From positions 1 to 38,265 of the IMG/VR virus record IMGVR_UViG_2917870735_000001: a stretch of DNA of 38,265 nt, one strand, 5' to 3'. Below the pieces are notes generated by a model. The model was not told where the DNA came from and searched no databases. It saw only the letters and a program-made list of their open reading frames with translations. The position numbers were made by a program, and so were the translations under genes. Each line of letters opens with the position of its first letter. The first letter of the stretch is position 1. Below are positions 24,723 through 38,265 of this stretch, in pieces. This DNA comes from a virus. Lineage: Duplodnaviria > Heunggongvirae > Uroviricota > Caudoviricetes.

Positions 24723-26054
24723 ATGTTAGATACACTATCTTTCACTGAACGTGACGAGTTCCAACGAAGAAACATCGCTGAAAATATCATCAAGTTGCTA
24801 AAACCAGAGGCAGACATTTCACCACTGGTAATAGACGGCGCATGGGGAACAGGGAAAACAGAATTTAGTATCAAACTGAAAAATCTCATTATTGAGCAAG
24901 AAACCGAATCTAAAGTTGTTTATATTGATGCCTTTAAAGGGGATCATGCAGAATCTCCATTACTTCTCATAACCTCTGCAATTGCTAGCATTTTGCCTGA
25001 GGAAGAAAAACAACACTTCATTAAGAGATCACTTCCTGCAATTCGATTTGGTTTAAAAACGGTACTAAAAGCTGGTGCAGGTTGGTTTTTACGACAGGAG
25101 GCTAGTGAAGTTGCCGAAGAATTCCAAGATGCGATGAAGAAAGCAAGCAATGCAGCAATAGATGGGACTATTGAAAATTTGCTTGAAGACCATATGGAAT
25201 CAGAGAAAAACATAAATTCACTTAAATCTTGCATCGAAAGTATTTCAGAAAATCAAAAGATAGTAATTATAATTGATGAATTAGACCGATGTAAGCCGAG
25301 TTTTTCAACAAATGTCATTGAAACAATAAAACACATTTTTGACATCAATAATGTCTTTTTTATTTTAGTTACAAACACAGAACAATTAAAAGCATCGATA
25401 AATCATATTTATGGTTATAGTATTAACTCACAAAAGTATCTTGACAAGTTTATAAAATATACCATCACGCTTCCAGACACATGTTTAATAAATGGTCACG
25501 TCGTATGTAAAACATCTGCTATATATTGGAATTACCTTGTAGACAAGACAAAATCACTAAATGAAATTAATAGTTTATCTGGTAGATTTATCCGTGATTT
25601 AATTCAACGAACCAACTTATCCTTACGTGAAACACAAACTTTTTCACGCAATCTTAACATTTTTCAACTGTTAAACGACGAGGAGTACAAAAGCAGTGCT
25701 CCTTTAATAAATAGGATCTTTGTCGTAGCTGTCTTCATACATTGCTTTGGTGACAAGGAAAAAATAAAACAAGAAATTACCGCTGAATCTATATCTCATT
25801 TAGCAGACCTGCTTAACATAAAAGAAATACCTTATTCTTATGAGAGAAGATCGCAAATTCCTGAAATATCTATTGTATTCTTCGGAATAATTAAAGACAG
25901 CATTACTCTTAATGCGCGATTTGCCCCTAAAAGTGATGAAGAACTTAAAAGATTCACAAATGTTTATACTAATTATGATCACCTAAATTTTTGGAGTACT
26001 ACACCCAGAGAGTTATTGATAAAATATATCAATCAAATGTCATTCATTCAGTAA
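24723..26054 (+). CDS. KAP-family P-loop NTPase
   Basis: 443 aa; Walker A GAWGTGKT (about residues 39-46) and the KAP-characteristic Walker B ..IVIIIDELDRC..; markedly AT-rich relative to flanking phage genes; opposite strand to the late operon; strong terminator immediately downstream. Confidence 0.8.
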   Translation: MLDTLSFTERDEFQRRNIAENIIKLLKPEADISPLVIDGAWGTGKTEFSIKLKNLIIEQETESKVVYIDAFKGDHAESPLLLITSAIASILPEEEKQHFIKRSLPAIRFGLKTVLKAGAGWFLRQEASEVAEEFQDAMKKASNAAIDGTIENLLEDHMESEKNINSLKSCIESISENQKIVIIIDELDRCKPSFSTNVIETIKHIFDINNVFFILVTNTEQLKASINHIYGYSINSQKYLDKFIKYTITLPDTCLINGHVVCKTSAIYWNYLVDKTKSLNEINSLSGRFIRDLIQRTNLSLRETQTFSRNLNIFQLLNDEEYKSSAPLINRIFVVAVFIHCFGDKEKIKQEITAESISHLADLLNIKEIPYSYERRSQIPEISIVFFGIIKDSITLNARFAPKSDEELKRFTNVYTNYDHLNFWSTTPRELLIKYINQMSFIQ

Positions 26055-31690: not shown

Positions 31691-32383
31691 ATGAACATAG
31701 GAAACCGAGTCAGACAACTTCGCCAGGCGAAGAACATGAAAATCGCCGATCTTGCTGAAGCAATAGGAGTGGATGCGGCGAACATCTCACGTTTGGAAAC
31801 AGGCAAGCAGAAACAATTTACCGAACAAGCACTGAGCAATATTGCCAAGAGCTTAGGTGTTGATATTGCTGATCTCTTTACCATAGACATCAAAAGTAAT
31901 ACTGTATATAAAAACAGTATTAATGAGGATGTTACGCAGGTGAAGGATGTGTTCCGTATTGAAATGCTGGATGTCAGTGCCAGTGCGGGAAATGGCCTTA
32001 TCCAGGGCGGTGATGTCATTGATGTGATTCATGCCATCGAATACAGAACTGATAATGCTGTATCGATGTTTGGCGGACGACCAGCCAATCACATTAAAGT
32101 TATCAACGTTCGTGGAGACAGTATGTGTCCAACCATAGAGCCAGGAGATCTAATCTTCGTTGATGTCAGTATCAATCAGTTTGATGGAGATGGTATCTAT
32201 GTATTTGGTTTTGATGATAAAATTTACGTCAAACGACTGCAAATGATACCTGACAAATTGCTGGTGATTTCTGATAACCAGATTTACCGCGAATGGGGAA
32301 TTACCAGCGAAAATGAACACCGATTCATGGTCTTTGGAAAGGTCTTAATCAGCCAGTCACAAACCCTTAAGCGACACAATTAA
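31691..32383 (+). CDS. cI: CI-type repressor (HTH_XRE plus S24 LexA-like autopeptidase domain)
   Basis: 230 aa; N-terminal HTH (..MKIADLAEAIGVDAANISRLETGKQ..), C-terminal S24 domain with Ser motif (..VRGDSMCPTIEPGDLIFVD..) and Lys (..YVKRL..); divergent from cro-like gene. Confidence 0.9.
   Translation: MNIGNRVRQLRQAKNMKIADLAEAIGVDAANISRLETGKQKQFTEQALSNIAKSLGVDIADLFTIDIKSNTVYKNSINEDVTQVKDVFRIEMLDVSASAGNGLIQGGDVIDVIHAIEYRTDNAVSMFGGRPANHIKVINVRGDSMCPTIEPGDLIFVDVSINQFDGDGIYVFGFDDKIYVKRLQMIPDKLLVISDNQIYREWGITSENEHRFMVFGKVLISQSQTLKRHN
31900..31919. promoter_or_regulatory. SOS-box-like palindrome TACTGTATATAAAAACAGTA inside the cI coding sequence
   Basis: Matches the LexA box consensus TACTG(TA)5CAGTA at 18 of 20 positions, with both CTGT/ACAG arms and TA flanks intact; lies in the linker-coding part of cI. 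Confidence 0.4.
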
Positions 32384-33040: not shown

Positions 33041-33160
33041 AACTAACCGCCCCTGCGGGGGCATCTATTGAAACGTAATTGACTCAATAATCGCCGGATG
33101 GCGAGGGCTTCCTTTTCCCAAAATTCAGCGCGGTGCAGCGCATATAAAGTGGAGAACGAA

Positions 33161-33697
33161 ATGTCATTTATTAAAACTTTTTCCGGGAAGCATTTTTATT
33201 ATGACAAGATAAATAAAGACGACATCGTTATTAACGATATCGCGGTTTCCCTTTCAAATATCTGTCGCTTTGCTGGTCATCTTTCACACTTCTACAGCGT
33301 TGCCCAACATGCGGTGCTTTGCAGCCAGCTGGTACCGGAGGAGTTTGCTTTTGAAGCGTTAATGCATGATGCAACAGAAGCGTATTGCCAGGACGTCCCC
33401 GCACCACTGAAACGCCTTCTTCCTGACTATAAACGGATGGAAGAAAAAATAGACACCGTAATCCGTGAGAAATACGGGTTACCCCCGGTTATGAGTACGC
33501 CCGTGAAATATGCCGATCTCATCATGCTGGCAACCGAACGCCGCGATCTCGGGCTTGATGATGGCTCTTTCTGGCCTGTACTGGAAGGCATCTCGGCAAC
33601 AGAGATGTTCAAAGTGATTTCACTGGCACCGGGCCATGCCTACGGGATGTTTATGGAACGCTTCAACGAGTTATCGGAGTTACGCAAATGCGCATAA
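33161..33697 (+). CDS. HD-domain phosphohydrolase (YfbR-like 5'-deoxynucleotidase family)
   Basis: ATG at 33161 with GGAGA RBS; H..HD signature (..HAVLCSQLV..ALMHDATEAYCQDVPAPLKRLL..) parallels the remembered E. coli YfbR pattern (..YHDASEVLTGDLPTPVK..). Confidence 0.65.
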   Translation: MSFIKTFSGKHFYYDKINKDDIVINDIAVSLSNICRFAGHLSHFYSVAQHAVLCSQLVPEEFAFEALMHDATEAYCQDVPAPLKRLLPDYKRMEEKIDTVIREKYGLPPVMSTPVKYADLIMLATERRDLGLDDGSFWPVLEGISATEMFKVISLAPGHAYGMFMERFNELSELRKCA

Positions 33698-34566
33698 CTC
33701 ATGTAGTTAGTTTTTCTGGCGGGAGAACATCAGCATATCTTGTTCACCTGATGGAAGAACAAAGAAAGGCTGGTAACAGCGTCTGCTACATCTTTATGGA
33801 TACCGGTTGCGAACATCCGCTGACATATCGCTTTATTCGGGAGGTTGTGAAGTTCTGGGACAGACCACTAACTGTGTTGCAGGTAAATATCAATCCAGAG
33901 CTTGGGCAGCCAAATGGTTATACGGTATGGGAACCAAAGGATATTCAGACGCGAATGCCGGTGCTCAAGCCGTTTATGGACATGGTTAAAAAATATGGCA
34001 CGCCATACATCGGCGGCGAGTTCTGCACTGACAGATTAAAACTCGTCCCCTTCACCAAATACTGCGATGACCATTTCGGGAGAGGGAATTACATCACATG
34101 GCTGGGTATTCGCGCAGATGAACCCCGCAGACTGAAACCGAAATCGGGTGTCCGGTATCTTGCCGAGCTGTCAGATTTTGATAAGTCGGATGTTATCCGG
34201 TGGTGGCGTAAACAACCTTTTGATTTGCAAATCCCGGAGCACCTCGGGAACTGTGTTTTCTGCATCAAAAAGTCAACGCAAAAGCTGGGGCTTGCATGTA
34301 AAGACGAACCGGGTCTGATGCGAGTTTTTAAGGAACTGGTTACGGGTAAACACGTCAGAGATGGTCATCGCAGGACAGGTAAAGACGTTATGTACCGTTG
34401 TCACCTGACGCTTGACGGGATTGCCAGAATGTATACCGACAGTGACTACAAAAATTTGTATCAGGCGATGGTGCAGGCCAGGCGATTTGATACCGGGTCG
34501 TGTTCAGAGTCATGTGAAATCTTTGGTGATCAATTGGAATTGAAATTCGAAGAGGTAGGGGTATGA
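33688..34566 (+). CDS. PP-loop ATP pyrophosphatase superfamily protein (PAPS reductase-like)
   Basis: 292 aa; N-terminal PP-loop-like motif ..VVSFSGGRTSAY..; GGAG RBS; start overlaps HD gene 3' end by 10 nt. Confidence 0.6.
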   Translation: MRITHVVSFSGGRTSAYLVHLMEEQRKAGNSVCYIFMDTGCEHPLTYRFIREVVKFWDRPLTVLQVNINPELGQPNGYTVWEPKDIQTRMPVLKPFMDMVKKYGTPYIGGEFCTDRLKLVPFTKYCDDHFGRGNYITWLGIRADEPRRLKPKSGVRYLAELSDFDKSDVIRWWRKQPFDLQIPEHLGNCVFCIKKSTQKLGLACKDEPGLMRVFKELVTGKHVRDGHRRTGKDVMYRCHLTLDGIARMYTDSDYKNLYQAMVQARRFDTGSCSESCEIFGDQLELKFEEVGV

Positions 34567-34898
34567 CAACAAAAATTAACGACCATGCACTGCGTGAGCG
34601 CGCGCGGAATAAAGTGCAGAGCATTGAATTCGCCTTAACACATAGTGCATTCGCTGAGATTCGCGCTGAGCTTGAAGATGATTTAGAACTGGCACGGATT
34701 CTGGAAGTAGAGCCAGATGAACGCGCAGCCTATGAATTATTCATGGAAAAGCGTTTCAGCGACTCAGTAGATCGTCGGAAATCGGAAAATGGCGATAACG
34801 AGTACATGGCATGGGATATGACTCTCGGCTTGGTTGTCTGGCAGCAACGCGCTGGAATGAGTCTTTCAACTGTACAACCGCTGGAGAGTCAGCAATGA
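34563..34898 (+). CDS. hypothetical acidic protein
   Basis: 111 aa; ATG overlaps upstream stop (ATGA); GAGGTAGGGG RBS; no recognised motif. Confidence 0.45.
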   Translation: MTTKINDHALRERARNKVQSIEFALTHSAFAEIRAELEDDLELARILEVEPDERAAYELFMEKRFSDSVDRRKSENGDNEYMAWDMTLGLVVWQQRAGMSLSTVQPLESQQ

Positions 34899-35089
34899 AC
34901 AACTTAATGACAACCAAACAAGTCGCCGACTTCTGTGGCGTTTCAGTATCGACAGTTCTTCGCTGGAACAGCGTAAACAGGAGAACTGGCCAGAAATACA
35001 GGCCTGACTTTCCAGATCCTGATATTAAATCCTGCCCAAATAAATGGGCATCACGCAAGATATACAGGTTTGCGGGAGTTATTGAGTAA
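34895..35089 (+). CDS. AlpA/excisionase-like HTH protein
   Basis: 64 aa from ATG 34895 (GGAGAG RBS; overlaps upstream stop ATGA): MNNLMTTKQVADFCGVSVSTVLRWNS.. is the typical AlpA/Xis-family winged-helix pattern; lies near the integrase. Confidence 0.6.
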   Translation: MNNLMTTKQVADFCGVSVSTVLRWNSVNRRTGQKYRPDFPDPDIKSCPNKWASRKIYRFAGVIE

Positions 35090-35322
35090 TACGTAGTAGT
35101 TCAGATGTGAGCTAACACATCTATGGCACAGAGCTAAACCTAATCAGACTGTCTACTCTGTGCCTAAAGTGGATGTTGCAAATACCACCAGCGAAGAACC
35201 AAAATTAATGGTGCAGGATGATGCAGATAATTCTGATGAAAACACCCAGAATTTGTTACAATAAGTACATAGCATTAAAGTTTGTTATGAATGTCTAAAT
35301 GTAGCTTAATTCAGAGGTGATA

Positions 35323-36870
35323 ATGGGTGCCAATGGTTTACTAGCAGTCTTCGCCATACTTATTGCTTGGTATACTCTCTTAACGGATGAGAGACGTGTT
35401 GATTTAAGGTTACGCATATCTAAAATTAATATTATATTCATTATCTTTTTTATATCAACAATCTTAACAATTATATATTCTAAGGTATTGCTAAGTATTT
35501 TTCCGATAAAACCGATCCCTTGGATACTCGGTTTTAACGAAGATACATTGGCTTTTACTTGTCTTTGTATCATAATTACATTTTTTGGAATTAAAGTACT
35601 GGGCAAAAGACTACCAAAAGCAAACCTTACCTGTTGGATCAGCGTTTCAGAAATGTATCTGCGCGCAAAAAAAATAGAACAACTGGGATATCTTTTTGAT
35701 AAATATCACGAACAGCTATTTAATATAATTAGTAATAAAAAATGGTATGTTCGCGTACATAATTACTTAGTCCCTTCATTATCTTCCATTATAATGGATA
35801 AAGAGAAGGCAAAAAAAATACGATTCAAAAAAGCTAGAAAATTTCTGTCAAAGTTTTTCCCTTATGAAGACAAAAGACAAAATGCTATTCAATTAAATAT
35901 ATCCAATCTTCTGAAATCAAAGGTTTTTTCACATTATTTAATTGATACTTACCCTCACGTAGCTATGAAGGCCACCTGCTTACAGCTTAGATATAATTAT
36001 GAGTATAATACAAATTTCTTTACGTATTTAATATCTAACCCAAACAGCATTATGTATAGGGAGTTACGAGACAACCAAAATCGTTCATATACAGGGGAGT
36101 ATGCACTCGACGAAAGTAATGCCTTGCTTAATTTTTATTTAAATGATATTCGTATGGCGATAAATTTAGAAATATGGAAACCTGTGGGTGATTATGTCAT
36201 TAGCTACATAAAAAAACAAAAAGGGAGTTCTTGCTTTTACAATCATCCAGATAATTACTATTCAAGTAGTGATGAGCGTTGGGAATGCCCAATCTTCGTT
36301 GGATTGACGTTTTTCGATGTTATGGTATCTACAGCAATATTCAAACGCTCAAAAAACAATATGTGGCTCATGTATTATCGTTTTTTCCTAAAGGAAATTC
36401 TTGAGAGCTATGAAAAATCTAGCAGCATAGATATAAATAGAGAGTTCCCCATGCGATTTGATTATTTAATATATGAGCTAATCAGCCGTTGTAATATATG
36501 GGTAGGTGCAACAGAACACCTCAATTATGATAACTGGACAACAGAAGAGAAAGAGCAATCCCCAGAGTTCTTTGCCTCTACAACCTTGGGGGAAATGATG
36601 TATCTGATTATTACTTCAGAAAAAATGCATAACAATCAAAAGACATATCTTTTAGAAATCATTATTCAAAGAATGAACTCTCTTGATCAAAACAAGAAAC
36701 CTGCTTACTCCAAGGAAATCTTCAACAATCTTATCCGAGCATTCTCCCCTACTTCCATTGATATAAATGCAGTAAATAAATTACGGCAACTTTATAAAGG
36801 TGTTGATCATGTTCTAAAAAACAAAAATTCAACTTTTGAAGTTGAACTATCAAAATATCTTGACCAATAA
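35323..36870 (+). CDS. AT-rich membrane-anchored protein of unknown function (3 predicted N-terminal TM helices plus about 400-aa soluble domain)
   Basis: ATG at 35323 with AGAGGTGA RBS (ORF track GTG at 35317); GC content far below the prophage average; hydrophobic segments about residues 5-22, 36-58, 70-92; no recognisable catalytic motif; located between xis-like gene and integrase, convergent with int. Confidence 0.7.
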   Translation: MGANGLLAVFAILIAWYTLLTDERRVDLRLRISKINIIFIIFFISTILTIIYSKVLLSIFPIKPIPWILGFNEDTLAFTCLCIIITFFGIKVLGKRLPKANLTCWISVSEMYLRAKKIEQLGYLFDKYHEQLFNIISNKKWYVRVHNYLVPSLSSIIMDKEKAKKIRFKKARKFLSKFFPYEDKRQNAIQLNISNLLKSKVFSHYLIDTYPHVAMKATCLQLRYNYEYNTNFFTYLISNPNSIMYRELRDNQNRSYTGEYALDESNALLNFYLNDIRMAINLEIWKPVGDYVISYIKKQKGSSCFYNHPDNYYSSSDERWECPIFVGLTFFDVMVSTAIFKRSKNNMWLMYYRFFLKEILESYEKSSSIDINREFPMRFDYLIYELISRCNIWVGATEHLNYDNWTTEEKEQSPEFFASTTLGEMMYLIITSEKMHNNQKTYLLEIIIQRMNSLDQNKKPAYSKEIFNNLIRAFSPTSIDINAVNKLRQLYKGVDHVLKNKNSTFEVELSKYLDQ

Positions 36871-36972
36871 TGATGTATTTATCCATCACCTGCTTATATT
36901 GCAGGTGGTATCCTGATCCCAGTTGATCTATCAGTCAAAAAATCAGTCATATAGCGTTCAAATGTAAGAATA

Positions 36973-37008
36973 ATGGCAGCACCCGCTTTACGCTCAAAGC
37001 AGGCTGCC
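36973..37008 (-). terminator. hairpin downstream of integrase gene (candidate terminator)
   Basis: ggcagc..gcttt / aaagc..gctgcc imperfect stem (36975..37008); on the minus strand followed by ATTATTCTTACATTT; 34 nt after int stop. Confidence 0.35.
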
Positions 37009-37041
37009 AAATTTGATTACGTACTGGCTACGCATACTGTG

Positions 37042-38265
37042 TCAATTGGAGCATGAGTTAGTACAAGTAACAATCGATTCAACTCTCTCCCACCATGCCT
37101 GGTAGGCTTTACGCTGTTCTTCTAAATAATCGCACTTGTCATAAACCTGCCATACCCCTGGCAGTTTATGACCTAGCATTATTTCTGCAATATGAGGCGC
37201 AGTAAGATCAGAAAAGTTTGTTCGTGCTGTTCGCCTCAAATCATGAAGAGACCAATGAGGGAATTGATACCCCAAACGCCGCCATGCGTACTGCATTAAA
37301 TTGTAAGGCAGCGACTGCAATGATGTCCGACCAACGGGTTCCCTGCTTCCTTCCTTAGTAAAAAGCATATCGGAACCATTGTTCATAGAAATAGCGTACT
37401 TTATAAGCTCTTCAACCGGTTCAATAATGGGCCGCTTTAGCGGTTCGCCTGTTATCTCCCCAGTCTTATGTCGTTCTGGTGGTACAGTCCATACTTTATT
37501 AATGAAATCAAAATCGTCCACCCTGGCGGTAATTAGCTCTGAACTACGGCAGCCAAAATGCAGCAATAGTTTAATGAATGCCCGGTATTTAGGAACCATT
37601 CGAGAACCATCGATCGCAGCATAAAGGATTTTAATTTCATCATGTGTCAGAAACCGTTTCTTCTGACCTTTACGGATATCCATATCTTTACCCGTGATAT
37701 CCGACAGCGGGCGAGTTTCAATGAGCTTTCTCTTATACGCCCAGACATGGGCCTGCTTTGCGTTAATTAGCAATCGGTCTGCTATTGCTGGAGTCTTAGT
37801 GCTAAGAGGCTCCAGGACTTCTAACCAATCATGCAATGTAGCTGCATCGTGAGGGATATTCCCGATTTTAGAGAACAGGTGCAGCTCAAACGAGCGGAGT
37901 ATCTGTTCAGAACCTTTTTTATTTTTTACACAATATGCTTCATACCAGGCACGGATCACAGACTCTACCGTCATGGCTTCAGTAGCTTTTCGTTTTTCAG
38001 CCTGCTTGACTAATCGTGGATTGCGGTTTGACTCGAGTTCACCACGGAGACGGATAACTTCTTCTCTGGCCTCTTTTAATCCAGTTGCCGGGTAAGTTCC
38101 GATATCAAGGCGCTCACCTTTCCCTGCCCATTGATAACGATATTGGAACACTACGCGACCTTTCGGTGATACTCTGACAGACAGACCATCACGATCGGAT
38201 TTAACCAAAACCTTATCACGTTCCTTTCCAACGACTGAACGCAACCACGCATCAGACAGCGCCAT
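37042..38265 (-). CDS. int: tyrosine integrase (P4-like, N-terminal arm-binding domain)
   Basis: 407 aa; N-terminus ..GLSVRVSPKGRVVFQYRYQWAGKGERLDIGTYP.. typical of P4-family integrase arm domain; C-terminal catalytic motifs ..HDLRRTARTNF.. and ..LGHKLPGVWQVYDK.. (His/Arg and Tyr). Start ATG is the last three bases of the window, so upstream context is unseen. Confidence 0.9.
   Translation of the reverse strand: MALSDAWLRSVVGKERDKVLVKSDRDGLSVRVSPKGRVVFQYRYQWAGKGERLDIGTYPATGLKEAREEVIRLRGELESNRNPRLVKQAEKRKATEAMTVESVIRAWYEAYCVKNKKGSEQILRSFELHLFSKIGNIPHDAATLHDWLEVLEPLSTKTPAIADRLLINAKQAHVWAYKRKLIETRPLSDITGKDMDIRKGQKKRFLTHDEIKILYAAIDGSRMVPKYRAFIKLLLHFGCRSSELITARVDDFDFINKVWTVPPERHKTGEITGEPLKRPIIEPVEELIKYAISMNNGSDMLFTKEGSREPVGRTSLQSLPYNLMQYAWRRLGYQFPHWSLHDLRRTARTNFSDLTAPHIAEIMLGHKLPGVWQVYDKCDYLEEQRKAYQAWWERVESIVTCTNSCSN

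Follow-up and report, generated by a model that had tools for sequence, protein, structure and literature searches.

SNIPE is a membrane-bound GIY-YIG nuclease and cuts phage DNA as it is being injected; it is made up of one poorly conserved transmembrane (TM) helix, a DUF4041 domain and the nuclease, with its N-terminus in the periplasm and its bulk in the cytoplasm (Saxton et al., Nature 2026, PMC13190303). Hotspots of defence genes have been described at psu-int in P4 and next to cos in P2 (Rousset et al. 2022, PMC9122126), and Table S10 of DefensePredictor lists 1,041 uncharacterised clusters on the basis of machine-learning predictions (DeWeirdt, Mahoney and Laub, Science 2026, PMC13092281). 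One entry of that table, WP_015740443.1 (cluster WP_047661322.1; 'Predicted novel defense gene', mean log-odds 8.35, no homologue among known systems), is a truncated E. coli orthologue of the gene considered here, a single large open reading frame (ORF) at 35323-36870 in a 38,265-nucleotide stretch of viral DNA (IMG/VR record IMGVR_UViG_2917870735_000001), a lambdoid prophage that is referred to, at its full length, as the window.

The family of this gene keeps recurring in phage-defence hotspots, which makes the ORF a good defence candidate; judged from its sequence and contexts, it is probably an anti-phage or anti-mobile-element defence gene, and we favour reading it as a functional mobile moron, most likely acting alone in anti-phage defence at the inner membrane. 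The initial annotation, made from the letters alone, had proposed a separately acquired, membrane-anchored candidate gene for phage exclusion or abortive infection, which the lysogen could express, in an integrase-proximal slot; the cassette in which the gene moves, the hotspot in which it sits, the defence genes beside its relatives and the lack of a match to any non-defence family all support that interpretation.

A mobile cassette in a variable prophage slot

The window carries a tail-fibre gene, a CI-like repressor gene (31691-32383), a DUF968 gene and YfdR-like and PAPS-reductase-like early genes. One big ORF between an AlpA/Xis-like gene and a convergent integrase had been reported, and the ORF and domain calls bear this out:

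35323..36870 (+): protein-coding gene, 515 aa plus stop, from the ORF call, dN/dS, homologues and phrog_13820
35188..36987 (+): mobile cassette core (5' region, ORF, 3' region), from blastn and backbone break points
34895..35089 (+): small helix-turn-helix (HTH; AlpA/Xis-like) gene, 64 aa, with weak Pfam HTH_17/HTH_23 matches below cut-off
37042..38265 (-): tyrosine integrase, right conserved flank of the slot, convergent with the ORF; Pfam Arm-DNA-bind_3, Phage_int_M and Phage_integrase

The ORF moves as a self-contained 1.8-kb cassette with a conserved promoter-like box, ribosome-binding site (RBS) and 3' hairpin. By blastn, the cassette is 81-82% identical in nucleotide sequence over 35187/35188-36987/37001 in a Morganella chromosomal islet (L014) and a Sodalis integrative and conjugative element (ICE; L019), and 77-78% identical in the island of an uncultured bacterium (a metagenome-assembled genome, MAG) and an IMG/VR viral contig (L002, L029). 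Homology to the E. coli prophage backbone ends at 35145-35187 on the left and restarts at 36991-37063 on the right; since cassette identity and backbone breaks give the same boundaries, the mobile unit is placed at about 35188-36987. Upstream of the ATG, only about 135 bp (35188-35322) belong to the gene itself, not the 230 bp first ascribed to it. The proposal of separate horizontal acquisition holds, the same cassette being about 80% identical in four unrelated elements and the gene AT-richer than its flanks in every host checked.

The ORF listing starts at a GTG (35317..36870, +, 517 aa). This codon falls within the RBS, all homologues begin MG(A/T)NG and the database entries are 515 aa long; the true start is thus ATG 35323 and the product has 515 aa, which replaces the earlier 517. 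An identical sequence is on record as a hypothetical protein of Escherichia sp. E14V7. The strong AT bias seen at the outset is real (GC 0.321 and GC3, at third codon positions, 0.302, against 0.497 for the window and 0.45-0.56 for the other prophage genes), the gene being AT-richer than its own flanks in 8 of 8 hosts checked, and so is the K/N/Y-rich composition of the product (8.2, 7.6 and 6.6%). The gene is intact and under purifying selection, with dN/dS of 0.17-0.19 between the window copy and those of Morganella and Sodalis.

The slot itself is variable. Both flanks, xis and int, are found at 88-98% identity (int alone 95-99%) in 700 of 5426 complete E. coli genomes, in prophages that adjoin yjjG; 35 of these genomes carry the ORF, likewise next to yjjG and about 96% identical in nucleotide sequence, and copies also occur in Stx1a- and Stx2c-converting phages. 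The HTH gene, the left conserved flank, is 88-92% conserved in prophages with other cargo (its homologue in E. coli 98207 is annotated 'helix-turn-helix domain-containing protein'). That other cargo comprises a dGTP triphosphohydrolase-family protein, an AIPR-family protein, a restriction endonuclease with a 313-aa protein, and hypothetical proteins of 413, 331, 342, 160+150, 239 and 271 aa, which have no PADLOC match or a marginal one only; the description of an integrase-proximal accessory slot was therefore correct, the same flanks carrying dGTPase, AIPR, restriction endonuclease or unknown genes. The alternative cargo genes that encode hypothetical proteins are:

L035 796-2034 (-): alternative xis-int cargo gene
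L036 886-1878 (+): alternative xis-int cargo gene
L037 725-1750 (-): alternative xis-int cargo gene
L038 611-1584 (-): alternative xis-int cargo gene
L039 809-1525 (-): alternative xis-int cargo gene
L040 635-1447 (-): alternative xis-int cargo gene
L041 1612-2550 (+): alternative xis-int cargo gene

Judged by the company they keep in this slot, the hypothetical cargo genes are further defence candidates.

Elsewhere, too, the family recurs in slots and islands together with known defence genes. Type I restriction-modification (R-M) genes are adjacent in L002, L004, L005, L013 and L020; the hosts with a homologue beside such a system include V. crassostreae, V. intestinalis, Arsukibacterium and a MAG (where the copy is again convergent with a P4-type integrase), and in Spongiibacter the gene stands directly 3' of hsdR in a type I R-M system that includes an SLFN/AlbA_2 gene. 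A Sphingobium island (L018) contains Thoeris (SIR2/STALD and TIR), DUF4917 and E1/E2/JAB-patatin genes, and the Morganella islet a TIR-like gene and integrase fragments; in Sodalis the gene is part of the ICE cargo. An Enterobacter P4-like satellite (L025) carries a homologue, 57% identical, after the primase gene and next to reverse transcriptase (RT) and TIR genes; its psu-int hotspot holds a HEPN_LA2681 protein, and the RT and CAP12-PCTIR TIR pair follows the homologue (L025 132-1703 (-), 10111-13309 (+)), so that this satellite seems to have a second cargo area beyond the primase gene. Homologues adjoin integrases in P. protegens and Paracoccus, the latter also with an NmeDI-like enzyme (L023), and in viral contigs their neighbours are tail-fibre genes, gpV of a P2-like phage or a McrB_N-HNH gene (L031). 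CBASS-like genes are also among the neighbours, and the 85 remaining neighbours (15 loci) include PADLOC matches to type IV restriction (mREase_IV, 4 proteins), a retron RT, PDC-M72A/B, PDC-M11A, PDC-S21, PDC-S35 and PDC-S07. A conserved partner gene was considered and rejected, since the neighbours differ in every context and the gene is always alone.

The elements that border the gene fall into those of the cassette and one of the backbone:

35229..35253 (+): 7-bp inverted repeat AATTCTG/CAGAATT, candidate operator, directly upstream of the -10 box
35254..35262 (+): putative extended -10 element TGTTACAAT, 61 nt upstream of the ATG, conserved
35313..35320 (+): ribosome-binding site AGAGGTGA, read in the sequence; TTCAGAGGTGA conserved in homologous cassettes
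36885..36909 (+): 3' hairpin of the cassette, stems 36887-36893/36901-36907, extendable to 36885-36909, no U-tract
35093..35187 (+): conserved double-hairpin element, stems 35103-35109/35116-35122 and 35125-35133/35156-35164

The gene does have its own RBS, as proposed, and homologues keep it. Promoter-like hexamers had been noted upstream: generic ones are no more frequent than in shuffles (a generic sigma-70 scan gives 10 sites against 9.9 expected for shuffled sequence, none on the plus strand upstream of the gene), but one conserved extended -10 box stands, TGTTACAAT, the sole TGNTAYAAT match on either strand of the window. Its hexamer (TACAAT/TAAAAT) is kept in all close cassettes and its TG in four of six (window, L022, L014 and L029), and we infer that the box acts as a promoter. 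The inverted repeat next to it, a possible operator, is fully preserved in L014 and L022 but has decayed in L019, L029 and L002. The strongest promoter-like site of the region lies on the minus strand at 35431-35458 (TTGATA-16-TATAAT, 11/12), in antisense orientation near the 5' end of the ORF; AT-rich DNA may have produced it by chance, or it may be an antisense or spurious promoter. Downstream, the predicted hairpin was found where it had been placed; it is stable (-14.5 kcal/mol, z -3.9 against dinucleotide shuffles) and retained in other cassettes with compensatory changes, for example CACCAGC/GCTGGTG in L014. Neither at this hairpin nor at the upstream ones was an intrinsic terminator called, since they lack a U-tract.

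The two upstream hairpins, reported earlier as flanking the gene, are exact in their repeats and coordinates, but belong to the shared backbone, not to the gene: both (35103-35164) lie in the segment common to prophages with ten other cargos. Their role as regulators of the ORF is thus rejected; the double-hairpin element is a real, structured left boundary of the cargo slot, whatever the cargo. Against dinucleotide shuffles, the 7-bp hairpin 1 is marginal (z -1.8) and hairpin 2 exceeds them (z -3.0), the folding z values for the element being -1.8, -3.0 and -2.8. Across 11 sequences, pairing holds in 85% of cells and double (compensatory) changes occur at five pairs, a covariation score reached in 2 of 500 shuffles and in 0 slid registers. 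A similar element of 70-98 nt is present in 2115 of the 5426 E. coli genomes, in at most four copies per genome and always in unannotated intergenic DNA adjoining accessory genes; it also precedes the cassette in L002 and L029 and follows it, in inverted orientation, in L019 (10859-10930), and further copies are at L045 3501-3571 and L046 3501-3581. Rfam has no match in 34800-37100. The element could be a terminator, a processing site or a recombination junction for cargo exchange.

Family, topology and fold of the protein

The protein matches one family only, phrog_13820 (a PHROG of unannotated function), over residues 4-460 (E 2.4e-38). In a profile search of 1.84 billion representative proteins, clustered at 50% identity, the family comprises 973 clusters at E<=1e-3 and 509 at E<=1e-30, from Gammaproteobacteria, Alphaproteobacteria and Acidobacteria; homologues reach E values down to 1e-292 at 98-100% coverage, and nearly all members have 500-620 aa, are matched over their full length and share the same architecture. 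The window protein belongs to it, showing the family motifs YRELRDNQ, (I/V)WKPVGDY, MWL(M/Y)Y and (R/D/K)EFP as well as E374.

Pfam and NCBIfam give no match for the window protein, and 46 diverse homologues have no Pfam domain either. In PADLOC-DB v2.0.0 the window protein has no match at E<=10 and the 46 diverse members give two isolated ones only, near E 0.01; a PDB sequence-profile search is likewise without match. The early remark that the soluble domain contains no known motif is thus upheld, and neither sequence nor fold searches yielded a confident match to a characterised non-defence family, the outcome that had been named as telling against the proposal. O-antigen conversion genes (Gtr, Oac) were considered and rejected; the protein has three TM helices only, against 4-11, and no GtrA, glycosyltransferase or acyltransferase match in Pfam.

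Two domains make up the chain:

35335..35601 (+): membrane domain; TM1 5-21, cytoplasmic basic loop 22-33, TM2 34-59, periplasmic loop 60-75, TM3 76-93
35602..36867 (+): cytoplasmic all-alpha domain, residues 94-515, with conserved core 241-300 and 316-390

The three N-terminal hydrophobic helices of the initial annotation (residues 5-21, 34-59 and 76-93) are borne out by hydropathy as well as by the AlphaFold2 model. Under the positive-inside rule, applied to two alignments of 44 and 46 homologues, loop 1 and the segment after TM3 are inside (K+R 3.5-4.7), and the N-terminus and loop 2 outside; the predicted topology of the family is N-out/C-in with three TM helices, and the charge pattern across the family thus places the domain of about 420 residues in the cytoplasm. 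The model (pLDDT 89.9, pTM 0.84) is helical throughout.

The best conserved parts of the chain are TM1 with loop 1 and residues 241-300 and 316-390; E374 is invariant, and S242, E247, G289, W348, Y351 and W393 are nearly so. Residues 1-30 (TM1 and loop 1) match the core of the soluble domain in their degree of conservation, an argument that they do more than anchor the protein. His346, in the motif (D/W)HMWL(M/Y)Y, is nearly invariant in the family; it is Asn in the window copy and, by alignment, in the E. coli copy L022, and some Vibrio and Shewanella members lack it as well. Since all these copies do without it, His346 may not be catalytic, or the His-less lineages may differ in activity. 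A HEPN-like Rx4-6H motif was rejected, the Arg near His346 not being conserved in the broad family alignments, as was a basic DNA-binding domain, the net charge of the cytoplasmic part averaging about zero across the family.

Proposed mode of action and alternative roles

In the model that we prefer, the protein would be expressed from the lysogen, and its cytoplasmic helical domain would sense an infection cue or contact the entry machinery of an incoming phage. The conserved membrane segment would then be the effector, preferably by oligomerisation that leads to collapse of membrane integrity or potential, and thus to abortive infection; alternatively, the incoming genome might be blocked or trapped at the membrane. 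Membrane segment and soluble core are equally conserved, whereas the anchor of SNIPE is poorly conserved; the helices thus appear to do work of their own, which favours a sensor with a membrane effector over a block of entry. Within a defence role, abortive infection by membrane damage is nevertheless a tentative choice, a block of entry is a less probable one, and some other mechanism, for example an unrecognised enzyme using E247 and E374, is improbable.

Superinfection exclusion at entry, by which the protein would stop or trap phage DNA, for example by binding tape-measure or ejection proteins or a host entry factor, while the cell survives, is rather unlikely as a whole, although several points fit it: the predicted inner-membrane protein has a cytoplasmic domain and a short periplasmic N-terminus, in an orientation like that of SNIPE, the prophages carry the gene in slots classically used for exclusion genes, and the membrane segment, itself conserved, could be a contact site for a conserved membrane protein of the host. 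All this fits abortive infection equally. Classical injection blockers are small membrane proteins; a simple plug leaves a conserved cytoplasmic domain of 420 residues unexplained, and neither a nuclease nor any other effector domain is detected in Pfam, NCBIfam or PADLOC.

Several observations weigh against the favoured reading. The structural matches of the model are to generic helical repeats only (the protein may or may not be a repeat protein of the HEAT/ARM/TPR type), and no sensor or effector domain is recognisable. With invariant acidic residues, the conserved soluble core resembles an enzyme or ligand-binding site more than a fast-evolving phage sensor, so that an unrecognised enzymatic activity is possible. 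Distant homologues in Acidobacteria stand among housekeeping genes, the near-invariant His346 is Asn in the window copy (nt 36358-36360), and many Escherichia copies are disrupted. AT-rich Escherichia genes may moreover be silenced by H-NS. As to the machine-learning prediction, 45% of the tested predictions of DefensePredictor were validated (PMC13092281), and the flag is not independent of the context evidence, because the model uses neighbouring integrases and defence genes.

Two further readings build on these points. The gene could be a non-defence accessory, a membrane-tethered enzyme or regulator (of envelope or lipid metabolism, stress tolerance, or plasmid or conjugation competition) that hitch-hikes in variable regions, which we regard as a minority possibility: the conserved core with E374, E247, S242, W348, Y351 and W393 is typical of an active or ligand-binding site, the gene occurs in ICE cargo as well as in the housekeeping surroundings just named, and morons of many kinds occupy variable slots, but bona fide defence genes are nearby in most contexts examined, known defence genes are among the other cargo of the slot, and no enzyme family or fold is matched. 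Improbable, by comparison with the defence role, is a silent or decaying passenger, the AT-rich copy of this prophage being unexpressed or inactive through the His346 to Asn change while the family is perhaps functional elsewhere. Frameshifted or truncated copies are indeed frequent in E. coli: in O103:H2 12009 the gene is split into ORFs of 436 and 81 aa (L001 8445-9993), 12 of 12 Stx1a-phage records (H38-H49) match in two pieces, and the 90%-identity cluster of the protein includes many truncated members. The frequent frameshifts in Shiga toxin-producing E. coli fit a costly or dispensable gene. The ratio dN/dS is 0.49 between the window and E. coli copies, an estimate that short divergence makes noisy, and the generic scan offers no strong sigma-70 promoter; yet the window copy is full length with the other conserved residues all present, its promoter-like box and RBS are intact and conserved, and the Vibrio and Shewanella lineages without His346 keep full-length genes.

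Elsewhere in the prophage, the early-left region (33098-34566, +) has genes for a YfdR-like HD-domain protein, whose match stays below the Pfam cut-off, and for a protein of 292 aa with a PAPS-reductase domain; between this pair and xis the window has a gene different from that of its E. coli relatives, which have DUF551 genes there. A second AT-rich island (24723-26054, +; GC 0.33), on the strand opposite to its neighbours, has the gene for a KAP-family P-loop NTPase of 443 aa (Pfam E 2.4e-70), for which PADLOC gives a match to the defence candidate PDC-S20 (E 3.5e-176) and weaker ones to PifA and QatA. Because of the PDC-S20 match, the prophage probably carries a second moron of defence type.

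Comparison with known systems

No mention of phrog_13820 or of family members was found in the literature searched beyond DefensePredictor Table S10, and WP_015740443.1 appears neither among the tested or validated systems of the tables of that paper nor in its text (PMC13092281). The initial description of the gene as undescribed thus stands as far as characterisation is concerned, but not entirely, the truncated E. coli copy having been flagged. Among many candidates the ORF is an unusually clean one: no known domain is recognised in it, its confidently modelled fold lacks a specific counterpart, its family is large and its cassette is sharply bounded, and with its putative native promoter the compact 1.8-kb cassette is directly clonable, so that the hypothesis is cheap to test.

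If the defence role is true, the catalogue of bacterial immunity gains a new domain-less family and a new fold, and the xis-int slot is a defence hotspot in a prophage family found in about 13% of complete E. coli genomes, Stx-converting phages included, with at least six further cargo genes that match no known system. More speculatively, the approximately 1,000 clusters in Gammaproteobacteria, Alphaproteobacteria and Acidobacteria might form a new single-gene immune family, in which an all-alpha domain without specific counterpart in solved structures is joined to a three-helix membrane effector and a cassette reaching from promoter to hairpin enters integrase-proximal, satellite, ICE and R-M-island slots; the double hairpin could mark the junctions of cargo exchange.

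Membrane-acting abortive effectors include lambda RexB with RexA, the TM effectors of CBASS and Pycsar, and AbiP/AbiZ-type proteins. The working model shares with them a small bundle of TM helices and a cytoplasmic module, carried in prophages and defence islands; unlike Abi, Rex, CBASS and Pycsar, the ORF matches none of their PADLOC models and has neither a partner sensor gene nor a cyclic-nucleotide-binding domain.

The slot resembles the P4 and P2 hotspots in that conserved flanks, here xis and int, enclose strain-variable cargo that includes known defence genes; it differs from them in its element, a lambdoid prophage at yjjG, and in its place between xis and the convergent int, and even in the P4-like satellite the homologue, placed after the primase gene, is outside the psu-int hotspot. 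From SNIPE the ORF differs in its three well-conserved TM helices, its all-alpha domain and its lack of DUF4041, nuclease or any Pfam match, the two proteins not being homologous. It resembles SNIPE, which is likewise found in E. coli, in being a single protein with an inner-membrane anchor, a periplasmic N-terminus and a cytoplasmic bulk (a predicted topology in the case of the ORF), and, if it does act in defence, it would be the second case after SNIPE of a single-protein defence organised at the inner membrane.

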